Shown here: piece after piece, positions 2,966 through 55,283 of the stretch
How the letters are laid out: every line of letters begins with the position of its first letter
How positions within the stretch are numbered: the stretch's first letter is position 1
From: a phage
Strand: one strand, 5' to 3'
Assembly: GCA_017676145.1 (NCBI GenBank)
Contig: GCA_017676145.1_3628.1
DNA: 64,000 nt
The notes under the pieces: model-generated
The model's database searches: none
Told to the model about the DNA's origin: nothing
What the model saw: the letters and a program-made list of their open reading frames with translations, nothing else
Made by a program: the position numbers and the translations under genes

Positions 2966-3159
2966 GGGAACACTTTGATGATTGAATCTTTACCTGGTTC
3001 AGAAGTTCTTTTTCCGTAGGGTAGGTAGAAATGCCCTCCTGCAGATTCGAATATAGCTCCTTCGGTTGTATCTATCACAGCCAGAATTAAGATTTTAGTC
3101 TCCATAGTGTTCCCCTGTTTTAGTCGTTGTGGTGACTATACCACCTCAGAAGATGGTCG

Positions 3160-3618
3160 TCAACACTTTTTGTACTCCACCACAATCACATCAATGTCTG
3201 TGGTGGCAAGATTAATAACGTCTTCCACGTGTTCCCACTTTAGACCACCAATACCGCATCCGATTTTAGGAATGTAGAACGGTAATGACATACCTTTGAA
3301 TACCTCGTTGACTCGCTCAAAGCCTTTCATGATTGAGAAGTATTCAGCATTGGGCCCTGGGTAGAACTGGGTATACAGGTTGATTCCATATACGACCCTG
3401 TTCTTGGCAAAATGCTCCCAACAAGAAAACATGCCCAGCTTGTCTAGATTACCATAAGCAGTTTCTTTGTCGGCTGCCAGTGCTTGAGGGAACTCACGGG
3501 CAATATCTTTCGCTATACCTGCACCCATTGTGTGAAAGCAGTTACAACCGTGGATCATGTGGCCTGACCCTTTCTTGAAAATGGAGATTAGATCTCCACC
3601 TATAGTATCAATAATCAC
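3160..3618 (-). CDS. Macro-domain protein (ADP-ribose binding / ADP-ribosyl hydrolase family)
   Basis: Motifs GGDL...HMIHGCNCFHTMGAGIAKDI match the macro-domain phosphate-binding loops; GTG start at 3618 preceded by GAGGAG chosen over the track start at 3717, which overlaps the upstream gene by 110 bp; ATG at 3699 is an alternative. Confidence 0.65.
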   Translation of the reverse strand: MIIDTIGGDLISIFKKGSGHMIHGCNCFHTMGAGIAKDIAREFPQALAADKETAYGNLDKLGMFSCWEHFAKNRVVYGINLYTQFYPGPNAEYFSIMKGFERVNEVFKGMSLPFYIPKIGCGIGGLKWEHVEDVINLATTDIDVIVVEYKKC

Positions 3619-9210: not shown

Positions 9211-9388
9211 GGGTTGTGTTGTTCACTGCACCGCAGTAGATGGAATACCCCAACCCATTATGGTGCAGAAACCACGGCACACCTTGGTCATCCTTCACGT
9301 ATACATCTCCATTTTCCGTAAAGGGCCAATACTCCTCTCCGATGGTAAAATACCTACTCATACCTTCAGCCAGATACTTTACTTTCAT
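9194..9388 (-). CDS. Hypothetical protein (paralog family B, copy 1)
   Basis: 64 aa; YVKDDQGVPWFLHHNGLGYSIY pattern shared with the next two ORFs. Confidence 0.4.
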   Translation of the reverse strand: MKVKYLAEGMSRYFTIGEEYWPFTENGDVYVKDDQGVPWFLHHNGLGYSIYCGAVNNTTLAEFV

Positions 9389-27585: not shown

Positions 27586-28575
27586 ATGAATCTTGAAAAA
27601 TATTATACACCAGAAGAGTTAGAGCGCCTGCTCAAAAAATACAGACGCAAACAAAATAATGCACGGAAACGAGATATAGAGTTCAACCTGTCGTGGGAAG
27701 AATACCTCCTATTTGGTAAAAAACTTTTAGGAGAGGGGGTATGCGACTATACCCTTATACCTTTCGACATGCACACAGATGAAAACGGGCTGGGGAATCC
27801 TTTCTACCCATCTCTGGAGCGGATAGATGATGAAGGTCCTTACGCAATTGATAACTGTTGTGTGGTAGGATTGAGGTGTAACTCTCTGAAAGACTGCCTG
27901 GTAGATAAAAAGACCGCAATCTTGATTAAAGACAAAACTGATCGAAAAATTGTCCAGCAGATGATGCTCCACCTGAGCGAAGAGCGCATGGAGAAATTGA
28001 AAGGTGATTACACTTTTGAAGATTTCATCTTGCAATATGGGACGGAAGAGGATAAACTGGCACTCTTTGACGAAGAATGGGAGGAAGATATGTCACCAAT
28101 GCAGGATTTTAAAAACTTCATGGCTAACCGTGGAGCCAACAAGCACATTTCTGACATTGTAAACGAGCCTGCAGCAGAGGAGATTGAAGAAGTGGAGCAA
28201 CAGGCTTACGAAGAGGAAAAAGAGCCTCAAGGGGACGAAGAAGAGCTTACAGAAGAGGTTCCTGCACTGCCTGACGATGTTGAGATTGCCAAAGCTTACA
28301 CTTTCTATTGTCAGACGTTCTACGATGCAGGTATGAAAGTTGATCTGTCATTCAGTCAATTTAAGAGCACGTACATTCGAAAATGTTGTGCTTTAACTGG
28401 TGAGCGTCTCGGGGTCGGACTTAAACCACTATTAGTGACCGACTGGAATAAAGGTTTCACCAAGGGCAACTTTATGGTAGTATCTCCAATTATGGAGAAG
28501 GCTATGACAGACCTTATGAAGACCACTCGCATGACAATGACCGAGTTGGCTGGTATTTTCAAGCACGTTAAATAA
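27586..28575 (+). CDS. Protein with duplicated degenerate HNH-like module and acidic linker
   Basis: Two related segments (CDYTLIPFD...PSLERIDDEGPYAIDNCCVV and CALTGERLG...LLVTDWNKGFTKGNFMVV) flank an E/D-rich linker; the PSLERIDD...Y..DN motif echoes the 4875-5498 product; ATG at 27586 preferred over the TTG at 27520. Confidence 0.45.
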   Translation: MNLEKYYTPEELERLLKKYRRKQNNARKRDIEFNLSWEEYLLFGKKLLGEGVCDYTLIPFDMHTDENGLGNPFYPSLERIDDEGPYAIDNCCVVGLRCNSLKDCLVDKKTAILIKDKTDRKIVQQMMLHLSEERMEKLKGDYTFEDFILQYGTEEDKLALFDEEWEEDMSPMQDFKNFMANRGANKHISDIVNEPAAEEIEEVEQQAYEEEKEPQGDEEELTEEVPALPDDVEIAKAYTFYCQTFYDAGMKVDLSFSQFKSTYIRKCCALTGERLGVGLKPLLVTDWNKGFTKGNFMVVSPIMEKAMTDLMKTTRMTMTELAGIFKHVK

Positions 28576-28608
28576 TGACAGGGGCCAATGGCCCCTTCTG
28601 GAGTTTTA

Positions 28609-30069
28609 ATGGATAGCAGAAGTTCAGAAATCATTGCCGCACAAAAAGATGACGCCTTGCGAATGCTGCAGGCAGCACGCATGTATCTTCTTGAAAAGCT
28701 GCCGTTTTATGGCACACTGTTGTCAGGGTTGCAGTTCGTAGAAAACCACACATGGTGCTCCACTATGGCAACAGACCATAAACGCATTTATTACAGCCCT
28801 GAGTTCATTATGGGGTTGGCGGATGAGCGCAAAACCATTCTTAAAGCATCTTTGACTGACAAGCAGTTTGAGATGGCTGAGGTTTTCTATTCCCCAAAAT
28901 CTGTGAAAGAGGTGGCATTTCTTCTATCGCATGAGGTGGGGCATATTATCTGTGATCATCTGGTCCGTGGCAAAAGTTTTGAGCCGGAGCTGTTCAATAT
29001 TGCCTGTGATCATGTTATCAACACAGGTCTTGTGGTTGACTTTAGCAAGCCTCCTTGTGTTTTCTTCCCGAAGGGGAAAAGCACTACGTTTGTAAAAGGT
29101 AAGCCTTTTGGCTTCTTAGCTAGTTGCTACTGTGACATGAGGTTCCATGGATGGATTGCTGAGAACGTCTATGCGGTTCTTGATAAGCAAAGAGATCAGA
29201 ATAGCGGTAAAAGTAAGAACGGTAAAGGCGAGAGCTCTCAAGGAGATAAACGACAAACCGATGATCACATGAGTGGTAACGGTGGCACTAGCGATGATCT
29301 TGGAAAGGCGATGGGGTATGATCAGCCACAACCAGTGATCAGTCAATCTGATAAAGATCAAGCCATGCAGGACTCTGGTGACATGTTGGAAGCAGCAATG
29401 CAGGCTTCCGGAGGTCGTTGCCCTGAGGCTGTGCGTGAGTTTGTCAAGAACAGAGGTAAGCCTGTAATCAATTATATAGACATCATTAAGCAACGTATGC
29501 TGTCTAAACGAAAGGCTGAACTAACCTATAGAAAACCCGGTCGCCGATCTGGGTCTTTGACCAGCACAATGCGAAAAGTTGGGGCTATAAACAAGAATCA
29601 GCACGTTGTTGTTCCAGGTCGTAATCCGGAAAACACTATAGATATTGTGGTGGCTCTAGACGTTTCTGGATCGATCTCCCAAAGAACTTTAAAGAAAATG
29701 TTCAATGAGATCACTGGGTTGTGCAATCTGTATAAAGAGTTCAAGGTTACGATGTTCTGCTGGTCAACCGAGGTTGGAGAGGTTAAAGTATACACTCGTG
29801 GGAACATCGACGAGATGATCAACTATGAGGTCCACTCAACATGGGGAACAACAGCCGCTTGCGTGTTCGAGTATCTGGACGCTAACATACCAAATGCAAA
29901 AGATGTCATCGTCCTGACCGACCTATACTTTGAGCATAACTTTGAACAAAAGGCTGTTGACAACAAGTGGAAAAAGTACGATACTCTATGGGTCCTCACT
30001 GAAGGGTATAATAAAAATTATATCCCGAGCTTTGGGAAAACTGTGGAATTAATCGAGTACGCTAAGTAA
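28609..30069 (+). CDS. vWA-domain protein with N-terminal HExxH metallopeptidase-like domain
   Basis: HExxH zinc-binding motif LSHEVGHIICDH; C-terminal vWA MIDAS motif VVALDVSGSIS; ATG at 28609 with GGAG RBS preferred over the track start at 28588. Confidence 0.7.
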   Translation: MDSRSSEIIAAQKDDALRMLQAARMYLLEKLPFYGTLLSGLQFVENHTWCSTMATDHKRIYYSPEFIMGLADERKTILKASLTDKQFEMAEVFYSPKSVKEVAFLLSHEVGHIICDHLVRGKSFEPELFNIACDHVINTGLVVDFSKPPCVFFPKGKSTTFVKGKPFGFLASCYCDMRFHGWIAENVYAVLDKQRDQNSGKSKNGKGESSQGDKRQTDDHMSGNGGTSDDLGKAMGYDQPQPVISQSDKDQAMQDSGDMLEAAMQASGGRCPEAVREFVKNRGKPVINYIDIIKQRMLSKRKAELTYRKPGRRSGSLTSTMRKVGAINKNQHVVVPGRNPENTIDIVVALDVSGSISQRTLKKMFNEITGLCNLYKEFKVTMFCWSTEVGEVKVYTRGNIDEMINYEVHSTWGTTAACVFEYLDANIPNAKDVIVLTDLYFEHNFEQKAVDNKWKKYDTLWVLTEGYNKNYIPSFGKTVELIEYAK

Positions 30070-30084
30070 GAGAGGGGGTTATTT

Positions 30085-30348
30085 ATGGCAACAGAGTTAA
30101 AATTTGCATCAAACCGTAAAACTAAGAAATATCTGTCCTCAGTGGCTCCAGGCACTGTGGTGATGTTTGTTGATGAACTTGGGGATGTGAATACAGCACT
30201 TGTTGTAAAATCACATCCTGCAAACATATATGTTGGGGTATTTGACCTGTTCAGAAAAGTGTTTGTAGAACTACCCCACAGTTTAGTTGTTACAGAAATG
30301 GATGCCTGCATAGAAATTCTTGGCGAAGTTATGGTGGAGGAACAATAA
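30085..30348 (+). CDS. Hypothetical protein, tandem paralog 1 of 4
   Basis: 87 aa; GAGGGGG RBS; same length and K-rich N-terminus as the next two copies. Confidence 0.6.
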   Translation: MATELKFASNRKTKKYLSSVAPGTVVMFVDELGDVNTALVVKSHPANIYVGVFDLFRKVFVELPHSLVVTEMDACIEILGEVMVEEQ

Positions 30349-30611
30349 TGGCTACTAGCATTGTATTCAATTCTAAGGTGAAGAACAAAAAGCGTGCAGA
30401 CAGCTTTCCGTGTGGGACCGTGGTAAGTTGCGACGGAGACGGCATTCAAAACATAGTTATGATTGTCAAAACAGGAGAACATTGTGTGTGGGGGTTCGAT
30501 TTAGAAAATAATGAGTTGTACGATCTGCCACCAAACATGAAAGTTACAGAGCTTGACACCAAAATTACCATCCTTGGAGAGACAAGCTATTCAAAAGAAG
30601 GAGGAGAATAA
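30348..30611 (+). CDS. Hypothetical protein, tandem paralog 2 of 4
   Basis: 87 aa; ATG overlaps the upstream stop (translational coupling). Confidence 0.6.
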   Translation: MATSIVFNSKVKNKKRADSFPCGTVVSCDGDGIQNIVMIVKTGEHCVWGFDLENNELYDLPPNMKVTELDTKITILGETSYSKEGGE

Positions 30612-30874
30612 TGACCACAAAAATCACTATCGCAGAACCGAAAGCTAACACTCAACCTATCGAAAAGTTTAAATGCGGGGAGGTGGTAACATTTACACCA
30701 GATAATGAAGATGCTAAGATTTTCGCCATGGTCACAGCTGAGTGGATGTGTGACAATACCACACAGGTTCTGCGTTTTGACACCTATCTTACAGATGAAA
30801 TCAGGAACGATAAGATCGTGACTGGTGTGGATACTGAGATTATTTTCTACAAGAGCTTTTTAGAGGGTTTCTGA
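30611..30874 (+). CDS. Hypothetical protein, tandem paralog 3 of 4
   Basis: 87 aa; ATG overlaps the upstream stop. Confidence 0.6.
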   Translation: MTTKITIAEPKANTQPIEKFKCGEVVTFTPDNEDAKIFAMVTAEWMCDNTTQVLRFDTYLTDEIRNDKIVTGVDTEIIFYKSFLEGF

Positions 30875-30875
30875 T

Positions 30876-31109
30876 ATGGCAAAAATTCGTAAATTATCCA
30901 GCAATCAAGTTGTGAAAGACTTTGAATCTGGAGAGATTCTGTATGTTCGTGATGCAGATGACGAAGGTGAAGATCTTGTTATGCTAGTAGGACACGCTGA
31001 AGACGGATGCATACAGGCTGTTTTTCTTGAAACAGCTATGGTGCACTGGATAGAGCTGGACCTGAAAGCACGAAAACCTAAAGCAGAGATCCTGATTTAC
31101 GAAGATTAA
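30876..31109 (+). CDS. Hypothetical protein, tandem paralog 4 of 4
   Basis: 77 aa; similar layout, acidic core DADDEGEDLVMLVGHAEDG. Confidence 0.55.
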   Translation: MAKIRKLSSNQVVKDFESGEILYVRDADDEGEDLVMLVGHAEDGCIQAVFLETAMVHWIELDLKARKPKAEILIYED

Positions 31110-31124
31110 CAAAAGGAGAGAGCC

Positions 31125-31574
31125 GTGTTGAGCAAACGTGAATGCGACAGCATCAGCCTGAATTCTTATAAAAAACAATGGTTTGGGGTAGAAGTTTGCC
31201 GACTGCGGCTAGGCTCCTACCTGAACTTCGTTTATTACGAGAGCGACAGTCGTATAGTTTCTTATGAAGTGTTCTACACTAAGAATACATTCGAACTACG
31301 CCGTAAAGTGGACGGAGGGAGAACTACCACCCAGAATAATTGGGAAACTATTCTGCCCCCGGATGTTATAGGTAGTCCCCTGAATGTATCTGAAGATGAA
31401 AATCTTATGGTTCATGCTATGATGGGACTTGACAGCTTAGAGCTGGCGATCTATGATATGTCCATCGAAGCAGTTAAGCTGGACTACATCGAAAACACTT
31501 TAGAGGAAGGTATCAAGAAGTTTCTCGGTGAGAAATTGAAAGCCCACTTTCATAAGGAGCTATATCTGTTATGA
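31125..31574 (+). CDS. Hypothetical protein
   Basis: 149 aa; GTG start preceded by AAGGAG. Confidence 0.5.
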   Translation: MLSKRECDSISLNSYKKQWFGVEVCRLRLGSYLNFVYYESDSRIVSYEVFYTKNTFELRRKVDGGRTTTQNNWETILPPDVIGSPLNVSEDENLMVHAMMGLDSLELAIYDMSIEAVKLDYIENTLEEGIKKFLGEKLKAHFHKELYLL

Positions 31575-31816
31575 AGACCCGTAAAGAACGTAACAAGATT
31601 TTACCTGGCGCTCTCGAACACATGATGAAGTGCAGATCTATCTGGCACTCTGCCAAGGAGGGGCAGCATGTGGTCGTGGTTAGTGATAATGCCAACCCAT
31701 TCGGTGATTATGTCACCATGATGACTCCATACATCCGCGACGGTGTTGTGGAAGTGGTTCCTTATAGCGGTCTGCATGAGAGGCATTTTGAGAGCACTTT
31801 GCTAGTGGAGCTATAA
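31571..31816 (+). CDS. Hypothetical protein
   Basis: 81-aa ORF; start overlaps the upstream stop. Confidence 0.45.
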   Translation: MKTRKERNKILPGALEHMMKCRSIWHSAKEGQHVVVVSDNANPFGDYVTMMTPYIRDGVVEVVPYSGLHERHFESTLLVEL

Positions 31817-31818
31817 TT

Positions 31819-32385
31819 ATGGCGGTCAATGTGTCTTACAACACAGGAAAGCTTGACAGGGACATTGGGTGTCTTGTCCTTTCAGATACAGAGGAGTATT
31901 GGGGTTATGGGTTGCTGTCAGACCCACACCCGAGCAATCTTGTATCAACAGTGCTATATCGCTACGACCCTGTGCCAACGGTACACGACAAAGATATTCA
32001 CGACCTTCGGATCAAGTGCCTGGAAGATCTTCTGAACAATGGCTGCAACGATCTGCAGGTAGCCAAGGAGAAGCTTACAAACATCCACAAGGAGGAGGTG
32101 ATGAGCACCCTCAGTAAGAGGTCAGTGCACAAAAAGATGATGCTGAACTTTGCAATGGGTATCTACATGGATGGGTATAAGGGTGGGGATCCGATCCTCA
32201 AGCTTCGCTGCCCAACACTGTGGGAAAGAGTGGTTGACAGTAAGGACGGTACTGCTCTTCTTGAGCTCCACACTTCGGGTTGGATATGGAAGTATGTGGA
32301 CGGATACCCTCTGTGGGCATGTGGAGCTGGCGAGTTTGTTGACAGACCTAGCGCGGTGGTGGACTTGCTATTGCAGTTTGAATAA
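31819..32385 (+). CDS. Hypothetical protein
   Basis: 188 aa; GGAG RBS. Confidence 0.5.
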   Translation: MAVNVSYNTGKLDRDIGCLVLSDTEEYWGYGLLSDPHPSNLVSTVLYRYDPVPTVHDKDIHDLRIKCLEDLLNNGCNDLQVAKEKLTNIHKEEVMSTLSKRSVHKKMMLNFAMGIYMDGYKGGDPILKLRCPTLWERVVDSKDGTALLELHTSGWIWKYVDGYPLWACGAGEFVDRPSAVVDLLLQFE

Positions 32386-32441
32386 AAGGTGAGTTATAAG
32401 GCATTTATACACTTATCAACAATACAACAGGAGAGACTGAG

Positions 32442-32717
32442 ATGACGAAAGAAGAGGCAGATGTATTAGACTTTGCATTAGAAGCTACGCAGGAGGCTTT
32501 GGTGTTGGCTTGGAAAATGAACCAGCGTGCTGCAGAATGCAACCGCCGCATCAATGAGATTCTAGGCATGTCTATGTATGATTTCACTATGCATGCTGGA
32601 GAGATTCCTGAATTAACTGCTGAGATGAATGATCTTGACAATAAAATTAATATCATTCTGAAGACAGCAGAAACAACTCACCAAACCGCCCGTAAATTTA
32701 TCAACGAGAAGGTGTGA
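32442..32717 (+). CDS. Hypothetical protein
   Basis: 91 aa; GGAGAG RBS; looks helical (judged by eye). Confidence 0.45.
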   Translation: MTKEEADVLDFALEATQEALVLAWKMNQRAAECNRRINEILGMSMYDFTMHAGEIPELTAEMNDLDNKINIILKTAETTHQTARKFINEKV

Positions 32718-33193
32718 ATATGGACTACAGCTACTGCGGAGAAGAAGTACCTTTTAACTACAGCAATCTCACCACGAGCAATCCATATGAGACTCGTCAC
32801 GGCACACACATCATTGCTATTGACTTTGATGGAACGTTTAATGCGAGCCCTTTCATCTTCTCCCGCCTTATTAAGGACCTGAAGAAGGAAGGGTGGACAG
32901 TCTATCTTGTGACTTTCCGATTCATAACTCAAGACAATGTGGACATCGAATACTGGCGCAAGGAGCTAGATGTTGGAGTGTTTTATACTGGAGGTGTTCA
33001 GAAGGCTGCTTATCTGGCTCAGTTTGATATCTACCCGGACATCTGGGTTGATGATTCTCCAGCTTGCATTCCAGCCAAGAATCAGCTAGAGTTTGCAATG
33101 AAGGAGATCAAGTATAAGTCTGACGCTAAACGTAACGGATGGCCCTTTATTATTGAAGATTACCCAGATCCTGAACCGGAGAAAGAGCCATGA
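32714..33193 (+). CDS. HAD-superfamily phosphatase (possibly a 5'(3')-deoxyribonucleotidase-like enzyme)
   Basis: HAD motif I IIAIDFDGTF (DxDGT); motif IV-like IWVDDSP; 159 aa. Confidence 0.55.
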   Translation: MNMDYSYCGEEVPFNYSNLTTSNPYETRHGTHIIAIDFDGTFNASPFIFSRLIKDLKKEGWTVYLVTFRFITQDNVDIEYWRKELDVGVFYTGGVQKAAYLAQFDIYPDIWVDDSPACIPAKNQLEFAMKEIKYKSDAKRNGWPFIIEDYPDPEPEKEP

Positions 33194-33360
33194 AACGAAG
33201 ATACCATTACTTGATGTGGAAGTTATATCAGGGTGCTGCTAAAACTTATCGCACCGTGTTTGGTAATGACAATCACTATATTGTGTTACACCTTGCCGCC
33301 ATTAAGCATCACAATGAGTGGATTCGTGCAATCGTAATAGGTGACAAAGACTTTAAGTAA
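33190..33360 (+). CDS. Small hypothetical protein (56 aa)
   Basis: ATGA overlap with the HAD gene stop (translational coupling); MKRRYHYLMWKLYQG...; not in the 60-aa ORF track. Confidence 0.3.
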   Translation: MKRRYHYLMWKLYQGAAKTYRTVFGNDNHYIVLHLAAIKHHNEWIRAIVIGDKDFK

Positions 33361-33411
33361 GGTATGCCTCAAAAACGTAATAGTGTGGATTTCTAAATGG
33401 AGACTGATTAA

Positions 33412-33792
33412 ATGTGCAAGTGTAAATCCTATAATTGGAAAGTGAAAGGTGCCAAGCATCAAAATGTTATCGTTGATGTGCCTAAAAAGCTCCGTGACGG
33501 CAAAAAACGTGTGTGCCTTGGTAAGTGCATGGCTAAACCTATCATGAGCTTGTGGGCAGCAGGATTGAAGACTCTAAACTGCTGCTGTGGTCATAACAAA
33601 GATGCTCCAAGCATCATTATCCCAGAGGATGCAGACCCTAAAGCTTATGCCAAAATACTGACTCGCTACCCCAGCACCTTTCTGATCGGAAAATGGTGTC
33701 ACGATGAACTTCAATGGTGGATAGCATACGGCAGCATAGGTACTGCTGTTGGCTTTCCAGCTTTGTCAGAGCGCTACGTCAAAGTGTCATAA
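33412..33792 (+). CDS. Cysteine-rich hypothetical protein
   Basis: 126 aa; MCKCK...CLGKC...NCCCGHN, likely metal-binding. Confidence 0.45.
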   Translation: MCKCKSYNWKVKGAKHQNVIVDVPKKLRDGKKRVCLGKCMAKPIMSLWAAGLKTLNCCCGHNKDAPSIIIPEDADPKAYAKILTRYPSTFLIGKWCHDELQWWIAYGSIGTAVGFPALSERYVKVS

Positions 33793-33894
33793 TCGATTTT
33801 AAGGCCTCAAACGAGGCCTGTGCCTTCATAAACTTCCTACCTATGTGCGATTACCCTTCTGAATAAAATACCCTCTCAAATTGCTTAAAATTAA

Positions 33895-33923
33895 GCTTGA
33901 CACTAACACCAGATTTATATATG
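33895..33923 (+). promoter_or_regulatory. Sigma70-like promoter (plus strand) TTGACA-N17-TATGAT
   Basis: TTGACA at 33895-33900, 17-bp spacer, TATGAT; follows the hairpin aggcctc-aaac-gaggcct (33802-33819); precedes GAGGAG RBS and the ATG at 33956. Confidence 0.4.
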
Positions 33924-33955
33924 ATTATCTCACCAACCCAACAGAGGAGATTGTC

Positions 33956-34363
33956 ATGGATAATCTTGCAAGTGTAAACGTAGAAATTGTTAAACTAAAG
34001 TTCTTGGGCTTTCGAGACCCTAATTCTCTAACAGCTATACTGATGGATACCCACTTCACACCGGGGAAAGAGTACACTGCCTTCCGTTATACTCACGGAG
34101 ATCACGAATCGGCCTATAGTGTGAATACAAACCTCGGTGAGGGATATTTCATCAGAGATATCACAGATCACTTGTGGGGTATGTGGGAATTGGTGGGAGA
34201 AGAGAATAAATCCCTTCCCAAAGAGATTTGGGTGCACACCTTCCACACAGGGAAGTTTGGTGGAACGGAGCATAAATCTATCCACTATGATGAAGGAAGT
34301 GCCATCAAGCAACAAGCTGTGCTTGGCGGATCTGTAGAAAAATTTGTTAAATGCGAGGACTGA
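33956..34363 (+). CDS. Hypothetical protein
   Basis: ATG at 33956 (MDNLASV...) with GAGGAG RBS, preferred over the track start at 33881. Confidence 0.5.
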   Translation: MDNLASVNVEIVKLKFLGFRDPNSLTAILMDTHFTPGKEYTAFRYTHGDHESAYSVNTNLGEGYFIRDITDHLWGMWELVGEENKSLPKEIWVHTFHTGKFGGTEHKSIHYDEGSAIKQQAVLGGSVEKFVKCED

Positions 34364-40300: not shown

Positions 40301-42046
40301 TTAACGTTGTGCAATAACCACATCCACAATATCACCAACACCACAATATGTCAATTGTAGCAAGGTAACGCTGTTGGCTTTGTTGTTAATGACAGGGGTA
40401 GCCGACAGTATGGCATATTTATCGTGCAAAGTCACGTTGTGGCCTACAGCATCTTGAATGACATAGATGATTGCAGTAAACGGGTAAGGTTTATCTTCAG
40501 CCGATGTTCCAGGCCATTGGCCTATTGTAAAATCCCCTTTCGCGTGGACAACATACATGCTGGCCTGCCCGTTAGGTGTCCATGTCCCACTAGATGCGTC
40601 AACCTCCTCTAAATCAAAATCTACCTTCCCTGCGTGGAAAGTAGGGGCAGTAATAGTTTTACCAGCCTCAATTTCTTGAGAGGTGGTTATCTTACCACTG
40701 GAGTTAATGCCGTTGCAGACAAAGTTAACATTAGAGAAGTCTGGCAGCCACCCAGTCACCGTGCCGGATATTTCAAGGTTGTGAAGATAAGTGGTTCCCG
40801 TACCTGCTGCGTTTAAACTAACATCTCCATTTACCTGCAAGTTGCGGGTAACGTTGCAGTTTTCAGAGTTTGCAGTTGTTGCAGTTAGAGTAGTGGTTGT
40901 CAGCTCGGTAATTGCACCTTTGTTGGCTGTAAGCCCTTCTCCTTCAAAAGTGGCACGCTCATTCACCCTCAGAGTATTTAAAGATATGTTCTGGACGGAT
41001 GCTGTGCCACGAATGACTATAGATCCGCCAACCTCTAAATCTCCATTGATCAGTGCATCTCCCGTGCTTTCAATATAGCTAGGGTAGATCATGGTGCCAT
41101 CTACAGAGTAGGTTATCCCTGTAACGGTACCTGTCACCTCAAGGTTCTTAACCCTGGTGGTCCCATCAACCTGCAATGTCGGTTCGGTTGCTGCCTTCAT
41201 GGCATTACCACGAATGTACACGTAGTCAAAAAAGTTATTACCTAGACCATCAAAATGCACATCGTTGTTATTAGCCACTGGTTTCCCAGAAGTTATAGTG
41301 TCAGCTATAACTCTGTGGGTGGCTACTTCATGAGGTTGCAGCTCTGTGCTTCTCCAGTCTGCATGCTTAGGATCGCTCCACGCAAAAGTCAGTGTAGAAG
41401 TATTTGCAGTAAGGATTAGGTTCCTGAAGCGTGCAGTAGAATCCGCTCCATTAACAGGCCCGTGTAAGGTAAGGGTGCCACCAACTATGGTGTTAGCAAG
41501 TTCTGTAAGACCTTTTACCACCAAAGACCCTACAGTAACTTTCATCCCCTCCATGGCTTTAAATATGCTATCCACATAGTCCACAACAAACTCTGTGTTT
41601 GCTATAGACTCGGACTTATCGTCCATTGGAGGTGTAGGTACTCGCGGGTCACCTTCGAATCTTGGGCTGTTAAGTTTTGCGTAGTATTTTGCCATTACTG
41701 CAGAATCGGTATATAATCTCCAGTTCGGAGATTGTGAAGGATCTGCTGGCATCCTAACCGGGTTAGATTTTGATGCTGCTGGGGCGTACCACCACTGAGG
41801 GCCTGTATCCCCTTTAAACTCATACAACTGGTTAAAAACTGTTGTGGATGCACCATACGCCCAAGGGATTGGTGGCGTTTTAAAATAAAGGGTGTCAAGC
41901 ATGGCTTTTCGTACCGTAGGGATGGTGGTCCCATCCTCTACGACAACTTCATCCACAGCGTTACCGTTGACAATCAGGTGCAAACGTTCAGAATCAACAA
42001 TTACTTGATCTACCGCCTGCTCAAAGCTTGTCATGTCTTGCGCCAT
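40301..42046 (-). CDS. Tail fibre protein
   Basis: 581 aa; Thr/Gly/Asn-rich beta-type repeats (LEVTGTVTGITYSVDGT, NLQVNGDVSLNAAGTGTTY) typical of fibre shafts. Confidence 0.6.
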   Translation of the reverse strand: MAQDMTSFEQAVDQVIVDSERLHLIVNGNAVDEVVVEDGTTIPTVRKAMLDTLYFKTPPIPWAYGASTTVFNQLYEFKGDTGPQWWYAPAASKSNPVRMPADPSQSPNWRLYTDSAVMAKYYAKLNSPRFEGDPRVPTPPMDDKSESIANTEFVVDYVDSIFKAMEGMKVTVGSLVVKGLTELANTIVGGTLTLHGPVNGADSTARFRNLILTANTSTLTFAWSDPKHADWRSTELQPHEVATHRVIADTITSGKPVANNNDVHFDGLGNNFFDYVYIRGNAMKAATEPTLQVDGTTRVKNLEVTGTVTGITYSVDGTMIYPSYIESTGDALINGDLEVGGSIVIRGTASVQNISLNTLRVNERATFEGEGLTANKGAITELTTTTLTATTANSENCNVTRNLQVNGDVSLNAAGTGTTYLHNLEISGTVTGWLPDFSNVNFVCNGINSSGKITTSQEIEAGKTITAPTFHAGKVDFDLEEVDASSGTWTPNGQASMYVVHAKGDFTIGQWPGTSAEDKPYPFTAIIYVIQDAVGHNVTLHDKYAILSATPVINNKANSVTLLQLTYCGVGDIVDVVIAQR

Positions 42047-42055
42047 GATTTCTCC

Positions 42056-42322
42056 TTAAGCTTTTTGCTCTTCGTTTTTAACGTGGTCAGGGTGCTGGCA
42101 ACCCCACCGGAGCGAGATGAATTTGCTAATAAGCTGGGGGCAAGCTACTGAAGGTGCGTATATCCACGCATACCATTCAGGAAGCGTATCATTGTACCCC
42201 ATATGAATAAACACCCCAGTCATCACTGCCATGCCTATGTTTGACCATAGCTTAGATTGGGACACTTTTGTAGGGTCATCAGATGCTGCAACCAGTCCCC
42301 ATAAAAACTGAGTTAATTTCAT
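42056..42322 (-). CDS. Small hypothetical membrane protein
   Basis: 88 aa; hydrophobic segment IGMAVMTGVFIHMGY. Confidence 0.4.
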   Translation of the reverse strand: MKLTQFLWGLVAASDDPTKVSQSKLWSNIGMAVMTGVFIHMGYNDTLPEWYAWIYAPSVACPQLISKFISLRWGCQHPDHVKNEEQKA

Positions 42323-42331
42323 TTACCCTCT

Positions 42332-43378
42332 TTAAGCATAAGATATGGTGATCCATTGACCGTTTACAAATTTTTGAATGGCTCCAGTCCAATAGTCGCC
42401 CTGATACGGGTGTTTATATGCGTAATTGCCGGAGCACATTACATGCCCAGGGTATACTCTTGATTCTCTGTAGGTGGTTCTGAAACGGTTTGCTATCCTT
42501 ACATCTTCAACACCTCTACTAGGCATAGGAATAGTAAGGTTACCACTACTGTCTGCGCTACTACCATTTACCCTGCGGACCACGTTTCTTCCACCAACTG
42601 TTGCATATTGACCCCTGGCGGTTTTATCGTTACAATCTACTCTTCCACCTATTTGAGCGCTGCCGCAGGATTGTTGCCCATTAACAGTGGATCTAGGTAT
42701 CGTTACCGCATTAGCATTTGCAGAGGAGCTTTTTGCATCATTGCATTCAAGATTTCCTTGGATAGCCAGTCTTGCACGGTTGGCAGTTATAGCATTGAGC
42801 TTCATAGCCGAAAACACAGGCTGCCCACCAGAAGGTTGAAATCTCCAACGGAAACCGTCTATTTGGTGAGAGGGATCATCAAGGTCTGTGCCGTCAGCAC
42901 CACCGATGTTGTCCATAATCCAGAAATCCATCATCGTCTTGTCTGGAGTTATGGTGGTGTATATCGCCGCACTATCTGTTGACGCGGATGCAAACTCGAT
43001 TCTTTGAAGACCTAAAGTTTGAGTCTGGATCATTGTGTCTCCAGCCTTGTCAACATAAAGGTCATCCATTTCTTCAGGCGAGTATACATTGAGAACTTGA
43101 CGTGCAGCAGCTTTGTCTGGAACGTCTGCCAGATTATTAGTGACCCTTAAGAATCTATTATCCCATCCTGGGACAACATCTTCTGTTAAATGCTTTAGCC
43201 ACGCAGAGAGCATGTGGAGTTCAAAGTTAACAACTTCACATGCTATCCTTTGTGTCATATCCCAACCTTTCAATCTCTCTTCTTTGTTCGGTTGAGATTT
43301 GTTCAACTCTCCTGTATTTTCAAGCACAACATCCTGATTGGCCCAAATATCAAGAGGGATAACTGGTTTAGTCATCAC
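42332..43378 (-). CDS. Tail fibre protein (paralog of 44391-45431)
   Basis: 348 aa; N-terminus PLDIWANQDVVL...KGWD and C-terminus QKFVNGQWITISYA shared with the 44391-45431 product; divergent central region. Confidence 0.65.
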   Translation of the reverse strand: MMTKPVIPLDIWANQDVVLENTGELNKSQPNKEERLKGWDMTQRIACEVVNFELHMLSAWLKHLTEDVVPGWDNRFLRVTNNLADVPDKAAARQVLNVYSPEEMDDLYVDKAGDTMIQTQTLGLQRIEFASASTDSAAIYTTITPDKTMMDFWIMDNIGGADGTDLDDPSHQIDGFRWRFQPSGGQPVFSAMKLNAITANRARLAIQGNLECNDAKSSSANANAVTIPRSTVNGQQSCGSAQIGGRVDCNDKTARGQYATVGGRNVVRRVNGSSADSSGNLTIPMPSRGVEDVRIANRFRTTYRESRVYPGHVMCSGNYAYKHPYQGDYWTGAIQKFVNGQWITISYA

Positions 43379-43435
43379 GTTCTCCTGAGAAAATTCCTTA
43401 AGGACTATTTTAACACTTTAGAGAACAAAATGCAA

Positions 43436-43455
43436 GAACGGCATCCTTGCCGTTC
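43436..43455 (-). terminator. Stem-loop / probable terminator
   Basis: gaacggca-tcct-tgccgttc perfect 8-bp stem; T-rich tract follows on the minus strand. Confidence 0.45.
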
Positions 43456-43465
43456 TGACCTTTGT

Positions 43466-43780
43466 TTACCTTTTACTATGCTCTACAAGCATGTGTAAAA
43501 TCTTTTGCACATCGGCTCTGATACCGGAGACATCTGTCCTGACATCTTGCTTAAGGTCGTTAATATCGGCCTCTAGCTTACTTAACCGGGTCTCAATAAT
43601 GGAATCAAGTCTATCTTTTGTAACCATGCTATTTTTCACTAAAATGAGGTCTTTCTCCAGCTCATCCAACCTCTTGGAAATGCCTTTCCATTTGGTGTGC
43701 CACTGGTTGAAAGCCCATACACAGATCGGGACAACGGTACCCATGCAGATACCGTACAATGCCGCCAAATCCAACTCCAC
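43466..43780 (-). CDS. Small membrane-anchored coiled-coil protein
   Basis: 104 aa; hydrophobic N-terminus LYGICMGTVVPICVWAF then a heptad-like LDELEKDLILVK...LSKLEADINDLKQDV segment. Confidence 0.45.
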   Translation of the reverse strand: MELDLAALYGICMGTVVPICVWAFNQWHTKWKGISKRLDELEKDLILVKNSMVTKDRLDSIIETRLSKLEADINDLKQDVRTDVSGIRADVQKILHMLVEHSKR

Positions 43781-43791
43781 AACACCTCCTC

Positions 43792-44376
43792 TTAGAGGGT
43801 AGGTCGTTCCGGGAAGAAAATGTCAGGGGCTTTAGATGTATCTATTTCAAGAAGTTTTACCCTGTACATTTTCAAATCTCTGATGTTGCGTTTTTGGTCA
43901 TCAGTGAGATCGTATTCAAGGTCAATCATGTCTTGATAGGCACCAATTCTAGCAGTAGCCCAAGCAAGTTCTGTCTCTATGACACCCTCTGCCTGTTGAA
44001 CAAAGAATTCATTGTCTGTGACAAATTCATCACCAACTAAACGCAAAGCGTCGTGGTGGAGCATAATGTTTTCTGGTACCTCTTCTTTTTTGGCGATAAC
44101 CACACGAAGACCTGGAGCAGGCCACAAGGCATCAGGTTCTTCTGTAGATGTCTTAAGAATACCCTTCTCGTCAACAAGTAGGAAGATACAGCCTGGATTT
44201 TCTTGTCGTAGTGTTCGTGATTGCACATACCAATCGCCATCATCATTACGTAAAAAATATCCAGTGTATGCCGTATAATCCTCAACCTCCTGAGGAGTCA
44301 GCTCCTTGGTACCTTTGTTGGTGTGGTATTCGCCAGATCCCGGTTGGTAAAGCTTAAACTCTTGAAGTATTTTCAT
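43792..44376 (-). CDS. Tail fibre assembly chaperone (Tfa family)
   Basis: C-terminus DLKMYRVKLLEIDTSKAPDIFFPERP matches the conserved Tfa motif (lambda Tfa [28 protein letters not shown]); located directly downstream of a fibre gene. Confidence 0.8.
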   Translation of the reverse strand: MKILQEFKLYQPGSGEYHTNKGTKELTPQEVEDYTAYTGYFLRNDDGDWYVQSRTLRQENPGCIFLLVDEKGILKTSTEEPDALWPAPGLRVVIAKKEEVPENIMLHHDALRLVGDEFVTDNEFFVQQAEGVIETELAWATARIGAYQDMIDLEYDLTDDQKRNIRDLKMYRVKLLEIDTSKAPDIFFPERPTL

Positions 44377-44390
44377 GCTAGTCCTCCGAT

Positions 44391-45431
44391 CTACGCATAA
44401 TTAACAGTGATCCATTGACCATTTACAAGTTTCTGTAAAGGCCCTGCCCAGTAGGTTGAACCACGCATCTCTTTTTTATCACCAAAATGCCAACCTGTGA
44501 CAACGTAGCCGTTGCGAACTGGAGATTCAGAAACACCATCAACAAGTCTTGCGCCGATTCTGATATCCTGTACACCTGTCTGCGGGATGGTGATCGTTAC
44601 ATCCCCGTTGCCGTTAGCCGTCACTCCATTCACAGAGCGCACCACATTTCTGTTACCGACAACACAATGCTGGCTTCTTACAACCATACTGTCACAACTT
44701 GCACCGCCATTGACATATACTGACCCAGCCGTCAACTGACTAGCTACATTGCAGTTGGTGAATGTTGCTGTGCTGCTAATGGTGAGGTTATTACATCGCA
44801 TGTTATCAACAACTTCAACATTGCCCACCACTTTCAACAACGCACGATTAGCCGTGATTGCGTTCAGATACATCAAAGTGAACTCTGGGTTAATGTCAGG
44901 CTGAGTTGGCTGAAATCTCCAACGGAACGCATCTACTGTAGAGGTGCCACCATCATCAAACGCCCCAATATTATCACTTAACCCAAAGTCGAGAGTTGTC
45001 TTATCTGGGCCAATAGTTGTCTCTATCCAAGCCTTATCTGTCTCGGCAGCTTTAAAGTTGATACGTTGCAAACCCAATGGGCCTGTCATTGTATCACCTG
45101 TAACTTTCACATACCTGGCGTCTGCCTCTTCCTTAGTAATAATACCAAGGTTTCTACGGGCAACAGGGATGTTCAAAAGATCACTCAAGTTATTATCACG
45201 TACCAGATAACGGCCTTCTTGAGCGGGGATCTGCTCGTCAGCAATGTATTTTGCCCAAGTCCCGAGCATATTGAAAATATAGTTAAGTTCTTCACAGGAT
45301 GGCTTTTGACCAAGATCCCAACCTTTTCTCCACAAATCATCAATCGGGCGTAGCCTGTTCTGTCTGTGGGTGTTAGGCAGAACCTGATCCTCCTCTGCCC
45401 AAATCTCTAATGGAAAACTAGGTTTTGACAT
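44391..45431 (-). CDS. Tail fibre protein (paralog of 42332-43378)
   Basis: 346 aa; shares N- and C-terminal modules (FPLEIWAEEDQVL...; ...QKLVNGQWITVNYA) with the 42332-43378 product. Confidence 0.65.
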   Translation of the reverse strand: MSKPSFPLEIWAEEDQVLPNTHRQNRLRPIDDLWRKGWDLGQKPSCEELNYIFNMLGTWAKYIADEQIPAQEGRYLVRDNNLSDLLNIPVARRNLGIITKEEADARYVKVTGDTMTGPLGLQRINFKAAETDKAWIETTIGPDKTTLDFGLSDNIGAFDDGGTSTVDAFRWRFQPTQPDINPEFTLMYLNAITANRALLKVVGNVEVVDNMRCNNLTISSTATFTNCNVASQLTAGSVYVNGGASCDSMVVRSQHCVVGNRNVVRSVNGVTANGNGDVTITIPQTGVQDIRIGARLVDGVSESPVRNGYVVTGWHFGDKKEMRGSTYWAGPLQKLVNGQWITVNYA

Positions 45432-45443
45432 TTTATCTCCTGA

Positions 45444-47516
45444 TTATGAGAAGTCTGGCGGGACAACATCTTCTACATACCCTTTCAGAGCAACCTGCCC
45501 CATATGGAGCACGGTAGAATCCCTAGCGGTAACAGTGATGCTGTCAGACATTACTTGCGGGTATGCCCACACATACTGTTTTACCTCAGGGTATCTATAC
45601 TCTATGGTTGCCATGTTCCCGCAGATACATCTCCATAAAAATTCTTGGTAATTCCTGGTTGGGTCGTAGCCATATACCGGAGCAAGCTCTTTGCTAGGAA
45701 CGAACCCTGCAAGGTATTGTATTTCAGACGGTTGCCAACCTAACTTAACGATAGGTATGTTTACAGACTCTTTTGCCTTTTCAATACCACCCTGCATCAC
45801 CCAATCGTAGCACTCAGTGCAGAAGAAATCAAGAGCACCTGCTTCCTTTTTATATTGGTCAGCAAGGTTCAGCTTTTGCGTAAGCTCGGTTTCCATAATG
45901 GTCGGGAAAAACAGCAAAGCTGTCATCTGAGCCGATGCAGCGTGTGCTTTTATTGCCTTTGAAATAGCTGCAATACGAGCGCCAAGCTTACCACGACAAA
46001 ATGCTACATACTTGTCATAAACACCGCCAGTTTTAGGATCGTCAATAGTCCCAATGTCTAGTGCATATTCACCAGTCTCATCATAAAACGCCTGTTTTGT
46101 AGGGTAGTCATAAATACAAGGCTTACGAGTATCGGTATTGAACCACCACCACGGTTCACCAATCTGCATAATTACTGGCAGGTTGTTTCTCATAGCGGCT
46201 GATGCAAAATTCTTAAATACTGCAGTAAGGAAATTCATACCCTCTTCAATGGTTGGAGACAAGAGGTAACTACAAGGCGTATAGCCTGTTTTAGCATAGT
46301 TATCGTTCCAATCTCTCTGGGTCCATTCCAACGGACAGGCATCGCTATAAAGCTCAAAGCTTACAGACTGCATAACGTCGAAGTCATGTCGCTTGGCATT
46401 ATACATAAAGTCATCGTGCCATTTATAAGCTGCAGCGTTTAGAGCCCCTGTCCTGTTTATAGACCATTGGGTTCCGGACCATGTGTAATCATAATAATGG
46501 CTCATACCAACATAATGGTTTATGGTTCCGGTATAGCCCAGACGCTTGATATTGCTCACCACCCTTAAAGGAGATACGTTCCACATATCGTCATATGCTG
46601 TGCAGATCCCAACGTCGTGCTCTTTCACCTGGATATTGTTAAGTTGCATCATTTTCCAGCCTGTGTCTGGCTGAAGCAGATCTAGACGCAACTCACACTC
46701 TACATTTTCCGTTCTTGGGTCTGTACTATTACTTACCCAATCTTTAGGCATAAGTGGTATTAGAATCCTTCTCACCTGTCGAGGATCAACACCCATCATG
46801 TTGTTGTTCTGGTCCATCCCGACGCAGTCCTCGAAATCAATATGAATTTCTGCAACATTCTTATCCTCTGAGATGCTGACAGCATATTGAGCTAAAGGAA
46901 CATAGATGATTGTGCCATCAACAAGGTCTACAGTCATAATCATCTTTTCAGGGGTGGAGAAGTTGCTGGCATTGGTTATTGACATTCTGAACCAAAGCTT
47001 GGTGTTTCTCATCTCGTAGTGATCATCAAATCCAATGCCGAAATGGTCATACTTGTCAACTGTTTCCCAAATGCACCCAGCCATGCCTCCATATGTTCTT
47101 GACACTAAACGGTTAATACAGCAGTTATTATCTGCAACAATACAGGTGCTTTCAGTCTGCTGGGTAGTTGTAACCCAATATCTTGGGTGAAACATTCTCT
47201 CCTCAACAGTATCCCAAGATATTCTGTCAAGATTCTCATCTGAAACTATTGTGCATTTCGCTCTTTGTGTTCCAATCATAACCCCTTGAGAGTTTGATGA
47301 AAACTCCATAAAGAAGCTTCTTGGCAACCTGTTTGGCAATTTGTCAACAATTTCTACAGGGATCTCAATACTGGTTGCCCCAACCGGGATAGTTACATCG
47401 CCCTCAACATGATCATAATCTCTACCTGGAACTGCAGTATCCTGAACTGTGCGGTAATGAAACCGTGCAGCCATCGTAGAGTAATCACGGTAAGGTTTAA
47501 AAACAGCTGTTGCCAT
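45444..47516 (-). CDS. Baseplate- or fibre-associated structural protein
   Basis: 690-aa ORF in the late structural block, adjacent to baseplate genes; no diagnostic motif. Confidence 0.5.
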   Translation of the reverse strand: MATAVFKPYRDYSTMAARFHYRTVQDTAVPGRDYDHVEGDVTIPVGATSIEIPVEIVDKLPNRLPRSFFMEFSSNSQGVMIGTQRAKCTIVSDENLDRISWDTVEERMFHPRYWVTTTQQTESTCIVADNNCCINRLVSRTYGGMAGCIWETVDKYDHFGIGFDDHYEMRNTKLWFRMSITNASNFSTPEKMIMTVDLVDGTIIYVPLAQYAVSISEDKNVAEIHIDFEDCVGMDQNNNMMGVDPRQVRRILIPLMPKDWVSNSTDPRTENVECELRLDLLQPDTGWKMMQLNNIQVKEHDVGICTAYDDMWNVSPLRVVSNIKRLGYTGTINHYVGMSHYYDYTWSGTQWSINRTGALNAAAYKWHDDFMYNAKRHDFDVMQSVSFELYSDACPLEWTQRDWNDNYAKTGYTPCSYLLSPTIEEGMNFLTAVFKNFASAAMRNNLPVIMQIGEPWWWFNTDTRKPCIYDYPTKQAFYDETGEYALDIGTIDDPKTGGVYDKYVAFCRGKLGARIAAISKAIKAHAASAQMTALLFFPTIMETELTQKLNLADQYKKEAGALDFFCTECYDWVMQGGIEKAKESVNIPIVKLGWQPSEIQYLAGFVPSKELAPVYGYDPTRNYQEFLWRCICGNMATIEYRYPEVKQYVWAYPQVMSDSITVTARDSTVLHMGQVALKGYVEDVVPPDFS

Positions 47517-48202
47517 TAACCCTCCTGTCTAGTTGCGTTTACTGTAATACTTTCACAATAAATAGTTGTGGTGTCCCAATCAGGTCTTACGTCAGGAACA
47601 TATAGCAAAGTAGCCAACCCACCAACTCCGAACTGGTTTTCTTCCCACACCGATCCGAAGCCGAGAGCTGTAGAATCGCCTTCAAAACCAAAAGCTTGTC
47701 CTTGCGATTCTGTAAGACGCAAATGACAAGGCAGTGGTAGCATATCTAAGATCTGATCTATGGACTGTAATATGTCAAAGCAAGTTTTTCTAATGTTTAT
47801 GTCAAATCTAAAGTTGTCACCTTTCCACGTATCGAAATTGTCTCTTCCGAACAATTGTCGCAAGGTTGAGATGACATCTTCACGAGTCCCGCCCCTCGAT
47901 GCTGCTGCCTGCTGAATAATCAGGGTAGCACGAAAATCAGCATCTGAAAGCCCATTCCGAAGAATACCGAGTTGATTACCAACTTCGTCAAGGTATCTTC
48001 CACTGGCATTGTTAAGCAATCTTCCTTCAGCCAAACCTACCAGCATCTTATCAACATTCTCCAACCTTTTAAGGTACACGGTTAAGAATGTGACTAAATT
48101 AACCTTCTCAGCCAGAAAATCTCCAGGCAGGTAGTCAAGACCCCCCTGAACAAAATCTGGCAGAGTGTGGATGTGGTTAACATCCGACTTAATCTCTGCC
48201 AT
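47516..48202 (-). CDS. Putative baseplate protein
   Basis: 228 aa immediately downstream of the Baseplate_J-like gene, the position a P2 gpI-type protein would occupy. Confidence 0.45.
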   Translation of the reverse strand: MAEIKSDVNHIHTLPDFVQGGLDYLPGDFLAEKVNLVTFLTVYLKRLENVDKMLVGLAEGRLLNNASGRYLDEVGNQLGILRNGLSDADFRATLIIQQAAASRGGTREDVISTLRQLFGRDNFDTWKGDNFRFDINIRKTCFDILQSIDQILDMLPLPCHLRLTESQGQAFGFEGDSTALGFGSVWEENQFGVGGLATLLYVPDVRPDWDTTTIYCESITVNATRQEG

Positions 48203-49705: not shown

Positions 49706-49774
49706 GTCACTCCTCCGGTATGAAAATCTCTACAAGGTATTTTACCAAATTTTGTAACAATAGTCAATCTGAGC

Positions 49775-55218: not shown

Positions 55219-55283
55219 TGTGCCTCCAGGTTAAACAATCATGATAATTATTTTACCAGATTTTAAGTTAATACGCAATATAA

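Follow-up and report, generated by a model that had tools for sequence, protein, structure and literature searches.

Two paralogous Mu-type short tail fibres beside a single Tfa-type chaperone gene in the conserved fibre locus of a Vequintavirus

Introduction

The subject of this study is the short-tail-fibre locus of a 64,000-nucleotide stretch of phage DNA (NCBI GenBank assembly GCA_017676145.1, contig GCA_017676145.1_3628.1; the whole stretch is called the window below), in which two short tail fibre (STF) genes, STF-A and STF-B, enclose a gene for a tail fibre assembly chaperone (Tfa) and a small gene resembling gp31 of coliphage rV5. The closest described counterpart is rV5 itself, whose fibre proteins gp30 and gp33 are 42.3% identical and were detected in the virion proteome together with gp32, the Tfa (Kropinski 2013, PMC3606486). 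Two paralogous short tail fibres with a chaperone, homologous to GpS and GpU of phage Mu, were also described in vequintaviruses of the BASEL collection by Maffei 2021 (PMC8594841), who noted that phi92-like phages possess the fibre in single copy.

The position of such fibres in the virion is known from related phages. Both phiTE and phi92 carry six fibre trimers per baseplate, with one fibre site per wedge. According to the phiTE paper, residues 3-92 of the short tail fibre are modelled as a globular joint bound to Wedge 1. In the 2026 structure of phi92 (PMC13450770), the single ortholog gp147 is called 'fibre III'; six trimers of it lie beneath the wedge, and a role in irreversible binding is proposed by the authors. 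Moreover, cryo-electron microscopy density of this fibre class (TC1) in the vequintaviruses Bas49 and Bas54 was presented in the RBPseg study (2025) at 7-9.5 Å, whereby a Mu-like tip was noted. Among coliphages of broad host range, the rV5-like phages belong to those most often isolated, and they are used in therapy cocktails, and the terminal receptor step of their infection is attributed to these fibres. Since the paralogy, the presence in virions and the lack of allelic variation have all been published, the finding of the locus is not new. The present analysis adds the regional mosaic of the two fibres, the ratios of nonsynonymous to synonymous substitution (dN/dS), the terminator and the promoter motif that precede STF-B, the placement of STF-B, by synteny, where sister genera have a gene of four transmembrane segments, and the similar tips of a metagenomic relative.

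Results and discussion

Two fibre paralogs and one chaperone gene

We consider it probable that the locus encodes a short-tail-fibre module, in which two trimeric fibres of the Mu GpS type share one chaperone of the Caudo_TAP family, dock at the baseplate protein Wedge 1 and carry tips directed at the core of the lipopolysaccharide (LPS). STF-A and STF-B align over their full length with 43% identity (E = 5e-95), and both match the family phrog_4465 ('tail fiber protein') from end to end, with E values of 2e-171 and 1e-162, respectively. They are thus paralogs that arose by duplication and divergence, as the initial annotation had proposed. Lack of significant similarity between the termini had been named beforehand as the observation that would refute this claim. 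Because each end is significant when aligned alone (4e-29 for residues 1-110 and 1e-15 for the last 58 amino acids), the claim survives, and both proteins contain the C-terminal motif ...VNGQWIT..YA. When the six reading frames of the window were searched with profiles, two fibres of this kind and one Tfa were found and no more. Pfam and NCBIfam give no match for STF-A, STF-B or the two small neighboring products, gp31 and gp29.

The resemblance is distributed unevenly along the proteins (STF-A numbering). In the N-terminal domain (residues 1-110) the identity is 38%, and only the first ~30 amino acids reach ~50%. It rises to 58% in the shaft (111-205), which is the best-conserved region, falls to 23% in the sole truly divergent block (206-255), recovers to 52% at residues 256-288 and amounts to 44% in the tip (289-346), where only the last ~20 amino acids are well conserved. 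The picture of conserved ends around a divergent center, drawn earlier for this pair, therefore holds only in part: the ends are indeed similar and residues 206-255 have diverged, but it is the shaft, rather than the ends, that is most conserved. At the nucleotide level the two genes are only ~50% identical, and no exact match between them exceeds 17 nt. The search for direct repeats between the copies yielded only short, diverged ones (63 nt long with 73% identity, 28 nt long with 86%), and no inverted repeats of at least 16 nt occur at positions 41800-45700.

The gene between the fibres had been taken for a Tfa-type chaperone, and this is confirmed by its match to Pfam Caudo_TAP (PF02413) over residues 122-192 (E = 1.1e-11, 45.5 bits against a cut-off of 22.1) and to phrog_136 (2e-36). 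Its start lies 15 nt past the stop codon of STF-A. There is no Tfa of STF-B's own, the profile search of the window having given one match and tblastn of the relatives one place per record; a single Tfa would therefore serve the tips of both fibres. In the modular Tfa model (PMC9608196), the fibre tip is gripped by the variable N-terminal domain, and conserved helices at the C-terminus bring about trimerisation. Indirect evidence for such a Tfa, which would stay bound to the tip and on which trimerisation would depend, is the reported detection of rV5 gp32 in virions. A sequence search of the PDB with the Tfa yielded chance matches only.

Probable docking at the baseplate

The fibre N-terminus has its homolog in residues 1-111 of the short tail fibre of phiTE (9cuy_c, PDB 9CUY), which is matched by STF-A (residues 1-108) at 1.8e-19, by STF-B at 2.3e-8 and by the profile of the fibre family at 2.3e-27. 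The bit scores against the phiTE wedge-binding domain are 73 for STF-A and 37 for STF-B. As the phiTE segment bound to Wedge 1 lies within this region, the homology supports the earlier designation of the N-terminus as an attachment module, and in both fibres it would be the part fixed to the baseplate. The presumed partner is encoded just upstream: gp35 matches the Wedge 1 protein of phiTE (9mjn) at 6e-67 and gp146 of phi92 at 2e-23, and gp36 is the Wedge 2 ortholog (2e-158). As in phages PVP-SE1, KB57, alia and CR3, the fibre genes sit after Wedge 2 and Wedge 1, with the Tfa and the gp31-like gene downstream; in the window, gp34 separates Wedge 1 from STF-A, and STF-B is placed after gp31.

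For phi92, the deposition PDB 21vq gives the 209-amino acid (aa) Wedge 1 homolog the name gp146 (one chain) and the 495-aa Wedge 2 homolog the name gp145 (two chains), whereas in the text of PMC13450770 each wedge has a single gp145 and two copies of gp146. The two sources seem to have their numbering interchanged, which matters for reading which wedge protein holds fibre III.

Shaft, tip and receptor

Residues 286-343 of STF-A match residues 440-501 of the Mu tail fibre S (5yvq_A) at 4e-6, and the family profile reaches Mu S both with its tip (1.2e-7) and with its shaft (2e-3). STF-B alone, 43% identical to STF-A, does not reach Mu S in a sequence search of the PDB; it is the more diverged paralog, and no counterpart of its tip was seen outside STF-B. 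An AlphaFold2 monomer model of STF-A, made from an alignment of 28 sequences, was poor (mean predicted local distance difference test score, pLDDT, 61; predicted template modelling score, pTM, 0.31), and the structural statements made here consequently rest on sequence homology. The only significant Foldseek match of this model was again Mu S (3.5e-7). Neither phmmer and profile searches of the PDB nor Foldseek recovered a T4 gp12 chain at E ≤ 10; HHpred matches of the fibres to T4 gp12, with probabilities of 97-98%, were reported by Kropinski 2013 (PMC3606486).

Infection by phages of this type needs the outer-core glucose of the LPS (Maffei 2021, PMC8594841), and two LPS chemotypes were suggested as being recognised (Kropinski 2013, PMC3606486). 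The terminal receptor, located in the LPS core, is most likely bound by the Mu-like C-terminal tips, and the two tips, 44% identical, may recognise two different variants of this core.

Proposed assembly and points against it

In the proposed sequence of events, two homotrimeric Mu-type fibres would be made late in infection and would be co-expressed, with the single Tfa helping both of them to fold. As the literature on rV5 indicates, both fibres and the Tfa would then be built into virions. The N-terminal ~100 residues, by homology with phiTE and phi92, would anchor the fibres at or near Wedge 1, while the tips would bind sugars of the LPS core as the terminal receptor, for which published infection data and our own reasoning are combined. 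Finally, the movement of the fibres on binding, as proposed for phiTE and phi92, might be passed to the wedge and help to trigger baseplate rearrangement and sheath contraction.

Several points weigh against this reading. The baseplates of phi92 and phiTE offer one fibre site per wedge for what is here a pair of paralogs, and the published maps at 7-9.5 Å cannot separate the paralogs. The N-terminal domains, 38% identical to each other, are each nearer to the single fibre of PVP-SE1 (56% for A, 49% for B), so that A and B may not share one docking site. Shared folding by one Tfa is argued solely from the absence of a second one, and the AlphaFold2 monomer (pLDDT 61) is too weak for claims at the level of domains. 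Moreover, a 2026 preprint on receptor mapping was unable to link the GluI class to a receptor-binding protein.

A bolder version of the module can be offered tentatively, as less likely than its simple form. The two fibres would be non-redundant, occupying separate docking positions and recognising two LPS-core structures with one chaperone between them; their tips would occasionally be homogenised or swapped, as the metagenomic lineage L013 (see below) suggests, and the gp31-like protein would act as a third, assembly or exclusion, factor. If true, the module would be a two-key system for the terminal receptor, its breadth tuned by tip exchange between the paralogs.

Source of the window and features of the locus

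Genome comparison places the window in the genus Vequintavirus, with the rV5/FV3-like coliphages, which are myophages with genomes of ~137 kb. The 5.6 kb around the locus have 98.9% nucleotide identity to Escherichia phage vB_EcoM_SYGMH1 and 98.4% to FV3. A total of 118 phage records match this 5.6-kb query, the coverage being at least 80% in 114, which have the same gene order, and the annotations agree. Every gene of the fibre locus lies on the minus strand, the order of transcription being gp36, gp35, gp34 (690 aa), STF-A, Tfa, the 104-aa gp31-like gene, a spacer of 87 nt, STF-B, the 88-aa gp29-like gene, gp28 (581 aa) and gp27 (1878 aa). The four open reading frames (ORFs) reported initially were all found in their places, on that strand (Table 1).

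Table 1. Coordinates of the features of the fibre locus, of the related sequence motifs and of counterparts in other records
Feature	Record	Coordinates	Strand	Description
STF-A, ortholog of rV5 gp33	window	44391..45431	-	346 aa, Mu-GpS-like short tail fibre; ORF list
STF-A, residues 12-35	window			EEDQVLPNTHRQNRLRPIDDLWRK
Tfa tail fibre assembly chaperone, ortholog of rV5 gp32	window	43792..44376	-	194 aa; Caudo_TAP
gp31-like small protein	window	43466..43780	-	104 aa; N-terminal transmembrane helix and coiled coil
Terminator-like hairpin	window	43435..43456	-	9-bp stem, 5 G-C pairs, T-rich tail; in the 87-nt gp31/STF-B spacer
Late-promoter-like motif TGTTAAAATA	window	43406..43415	-	copy of the rV5 motif TggTAaAAtA (Kropinski 2013); TGKTAAAATA
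STF-B, ortholog of rV5 gp30	window	42332..43378	-	347-348 aa; GTG start; annotated ATG start at 43375 gives 347 aa
STF-B, residues 12-35	window			NQDVVLENTGELNKSQPNKEERLK
gp29-like small conserved protein	window	42056..42322	-	88 aa; annotated membrane protein
gp34	window	45444..47516	-	690 aa
Baseplate Wedge 1 (gp35)	window	47516..48202	-	phiTE Wedge 1 homology; inferred fibre docking partner
TGKTAAAATA copy	window	49738..49747	-	
TGKTAAAATA copy	window	55249..55258	-	
TGKTAAAATA copy	window	9343..9352	+	
gp31-like gene	L013	1795..2109		
gp31-like gene	L003	6686..7000		
gp31-like gene	L005	6535..6849		
gp31-like gene	L015	6719..7057		
gp31-like gene	L004	6555..6896		
gp29-like gene	L003	7486..7755		
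gp29-like gene	L005	7333..7608		
gp29-like gene	L015	7536..7799		
Tips of the two paralogs	L013	977..1156; 3075..3254		

Two observations concern the surroundings and the records compared. The GC skew is positive only at positions 28001-34000 of the window and negative elsewhere, which fits a block of plus-strand genes beside the minus-strand late region. In GenBank, 16-21 records of the MG0656xx series are named 'Campylobacter phage' (host Campylobacter jejuni), and they are ~95% identical to the coliphage locus (42000-47600), with STF-A at 98.6-98.8% and STF-B at about 95% identity; their host labels look doubtful.

Signals before STF-B and a possible alternative seat for this fibre

The 87-nt spacer between the gp31-like gene and STF-B has a folding energy of -24.3 kcal/mol (z = -3.7) and contains the hairpin and the late-promoter-like motif of Table 1. 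The 3' end of the motif stands 28 nt before the GTG start of STF-B and 31 nt before the annotated ATG. TGKTAAAATA occurs four times in the window, against 0.36 copies expected. All three minus-strand copies are intergenic and located 30-40 nt upstream of gene starts, namely those of STF-B, Wedge 2 (gp36) and gp40. This placement suggests that the tail-fibre region may be split into several late transcription units, and since the terminator-like hairpin and the promoter motif precede STF-B, it appears to head a unit comprising STF-B, gp29, gp28 and gp27. A metagenomic relative, L013, has a similar hairpin at the same place and the same spacer features.

The apparent unit also lends weight to a different assignment of STF-B, namely to another fibre assembly, for example as a branch or an adaptor of the co-transcribed gp28/gp27 lateral fibre and not at the baseplate. 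Its match to the phiTE wedge-binding domain is much weaker than that of STF-A, and phi92 and phiTE show one such fibre per wedge. The N-terminal homology of STF-B is nevertheless clear, both to phiTE (2.3e-8) and to STF-A (4e-29), and the sister genera, although they have no STF-B, carry gp29-like and gp28-like genes after their single fibre cluster. The adjacency to gp29 and gp28 is thus ancestral and not specific to STF-B, and we regard the assignment to a lateral fibre as rather unlikely compared with docking of both fibres at the baseplate.

History of the duplication

In PVP-SE1 (Seunavirus), KB57 (Mydovirus) and CR3 (Certrevirus) the order is Wedge 2, Wedge 1, one STF, Tfa and the gp31-like gene, followed by an extra membrane-protein gene (with four transmembrane segments in PVP-SE1), the gp29-like gene and the next fibre. 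STF-B occupies the exact place of this extra gene, and no homolog of the four-transmembrane gene was found in the 64-kb window. STF-A is 46% identical to the single fibre of PVP-SE1, while STF-B is 37-39% identical to the single-copy fibres of other genera. Judged by position and sequence, STF-A is the presumptive ancestral-position copy, orthologous to the single fibre of the sister genera, and STF-B is apparently an old duplicate. As the same two-fibre layout and spacer features are found in L013, whose STF-A is 74% identical to that of the window, the duplication is older than the genus as sampled. In neighbor-joining (NJ) trees of residues 1-110 the A group has 100% and the B group 91% support, and A and B together are monophyletic in 1% of replicates. 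Either the duplication would predate the split of the genera, or the docking domains would have diverged fast afterwards.

The tips of the two L013 paralogs are 88% identical as protein and 74% as DNA, with many synonymous differences. Compared with their window orthologs, the A tip is 64% and the B tip 37% identical, and the A and B tips of the window are 44% identical to each other. The L013 pair groups together in 89% of NJ bootstrap replicates and shares 5 derived residues in the 30 columns where STF-A of the window, PVP-SE1 and alia agree. The likeness reflects either gene conversion or parallel selection, for instance by a shared chaperone or receptor, and since the tips differ at many synonymous sites, any conversion would be old. 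These tips are the sole sign of exchange between the copies, and they do not belong to the window's own lineage.

Conservation and exchange among relatives

The comparison within the genus comprised three genomes plus bands of tblastn identity. Across about 115-116 Vequintavirus genomes, the identity is 96.8-100% for STF-A, 94.8-100% for STF-B and 97.9-100% for the Tfa. Against two diverged members of the genus, with a synonymous divergence of up to 0.67, dN/dS was 0.02 for STF-A, 0.05-0.065 for STF-B and 0.03-0.10 for the Tfa; these estimates leave out gp28, STF-A and gp34 against record L010 and gp35 against record L001 (ortholog out of frame, partial BLAST match). Both fibres are thus under strong purifying selection. 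The few substitutions in STF-A cluster at residues 202-249, the block that is also the most diverged between the paralogs. In comparison, gp27 is 92-96% identical here, and Maffei 2021 (PMC8594841) attributed the variation to three other large fibre genes and saw no considerable allelic variation of the short tail fibres between genomes. The possibility that STF-B is a decaying duplicate was considered separately and ruled out by dN/dS values far below 1 and by the reported presence of both proteins in the virion proteome.

At greater distance, the picture is one of shared and foreign parts. The fibres of Klebsiella phages of the genus Mydovirus share residues 1-291 but end in a tip of another kind; the Tfa of these phages is shorter and diverged, with 23% identity to that of the window. 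Other relatives retain only residues 1-209 or 1-106. Unrelated myoviruses of 52 kb, for example BP63, have fibres in which the tip alone (287-344) recurs at ~59% identity. Fibre modules thus do move at greater evolutionary distances.

These shared segments with differing distal parts, the foreign occurrence of the tip and the similar L013 tips are what speaks for the initial view of the locus as a modular host-range cassette, with fibres or modules often swapped by recombination between phages or between the copies. Within the genus, however, the fibres are nearly identical and their dN/dS is low, and the fibre genes that do vary are found elsewhere (gp27 and the three large genes of Maffei 2021). 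Furthermore, the two copies have too little DNA in common for homologous exchange in this genome, and the L013 tips, at 74% DNA identity, point to an old conversion or to parallel selection. A variable host-range cassette was therefore not borne out. Its recombinational part fails within the genus, where long or inverted repeats are also missing, and is upheld in part only at deeper distance, by the module boundaries, the foreign tips and the L013 tips; as a whole, we hold the cassette to be improbable, slightly more so than the lateral-fibre assignment of STF-B. Among close relatives, the locus seems to be an ordinary conserved core without a swappable host-range cassette. Its practical value is accordingly negative: it represents a conserved core part of adsorption and not the place where host range varies, and engineering or prediction of host range is better aimed at the large variable lateral fibres. 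An invertible segment of the Mu kind was also considered and rejected, the genes being complete and on the same strand, with a single Tfa and no inverted repeats of at least 16 nt.

Co-assembly of STF-A and STF-B as heterotrimers, giving one mixed fibre at six baseplate sites, would suit the single chaperone, the one docking site per wedge known in relatives and the shaft as the best-conserved region (58%), but is very improbable, given that the alignment has indels of 2, 4, 2, 6, 4 and 1 residues in the shaft and distal half, which would break the trimer register, that identity is no more than 38-44% in the N-terminal and tip domains and that the two genes apparently belong to separate transcription units.

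Neighboring genes

The gp31-like protein has one hydrophobic helix at residues 3-25, followed by a coiled coil, in agreement with its initial description as a small membrane/coiled-coil gene beside the Tfa, and it belongs to phrog_5345. Homologs are found in PVP-SE1, KB57, CR3, L013 and the phi92-like alia. The Justusliebigvirus counterpart is annotated as a 'lipoprotein' and aligns with gp31 (BLASTP 2e-5). With a dN/dS of 0-0.04, the gene is under strong purifying selection. STF, Tfa and the gp31-like gene look like a conserved three-gene unit. A word-indexed homolog search with gp31 found close relatives only, and an exhaustive search of 1.84 billion proteins gave only 12 weak or short representatives, without annotation. 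No i-spanin partner, i.e., an embedded or adjacent ORF with a lipobox, was seen when the ORF list was read by eye. In solved virion structures, the gp31 and gp29 profiles had no relative (phiTE and phi92 models for gp31, the PDB for gp29).

As to gene order, a gp31-like gene of 104-113 aa directly follows the Tfa in every lineage examined, i.e., Vequintavirus, a metagenomic sister lineage, Seunavirus, Mydovirus, Certrevirus and the phi92-like Justusliebigvirus.

The gp29-like protein matches phrog_1322 at 2.7e-32 and is 48-53% identical across the genera of the Vequintavirinae, which makes it more conserved than the neighboring fibres. Despite its annotation as a membrane protein, it has no 19-residue hydrophobic stretch above a Kyte-Doolittle value of 1.5.

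On the other side of the locus, gp34 combines a Calx-beta domain with the N-terminal and TIM-barrel domains of a non-contractile tail sheath protein. At residue 337 it has the GMSHY motif, connected in a 2026 preprint with binding of the N4 glycan receptor (NGR) polysaccharide. The gene is inserted between Wedge 1 and STF-A, and this position is empty in PVP-SE1, KB57, CR3 and alia.

Comparison with known systems

The baseplate fibre gp12 of T4 resembles the fibres of this locus in its proposed role, the irreversible binding to the LPS core, and differs from them in the chemistry of baseplate attachment. Moreover, T4 gp12 is known to need gp57A rather than a Caudo_TAP protein.

With phiTE gp236 (9CUY/9MJN) and phi92 gp147 the locus has in common the wedge-docking N-terminus and the position after Wedge 2 and Wedge 1, followed by the Tfa and the gp31-like gene. 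Both phages differ in having a single fibre copy. In addition, in the fibre of phiTE, a flagellotropic phage, a long coiled coil and Ig-like domains separate anchor and tip (554 aa), while in the phi92-like fibres only the ends are shared, as two pieces that together cover 38% of the query.

The likeness to GpS and GpU of Mu (TfaMu, 5YVQ) extends to a homologous shaft and tip, to the Caudo_TAP gene directly downstream (for STF-A only) and to LPS as the target. In Mu, inversion of the G segment switches between S/U and S'/U', each tip having its own chaperone, whereas here the fibre genes lie on the same strand and the chaperone would be shared. Besides, the N-terminal domain is of the wedge-binding type of the Vequintavirinae and not of the Mu type.

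Overall, the locus corresponds most closely to gp33, gp32, gp31 and gp30 of rV5: these are the same genes, 95-100% identical to those of Vequintavirus genomes including rV5 (phage V5, NC_011041), with matching order and sizes.

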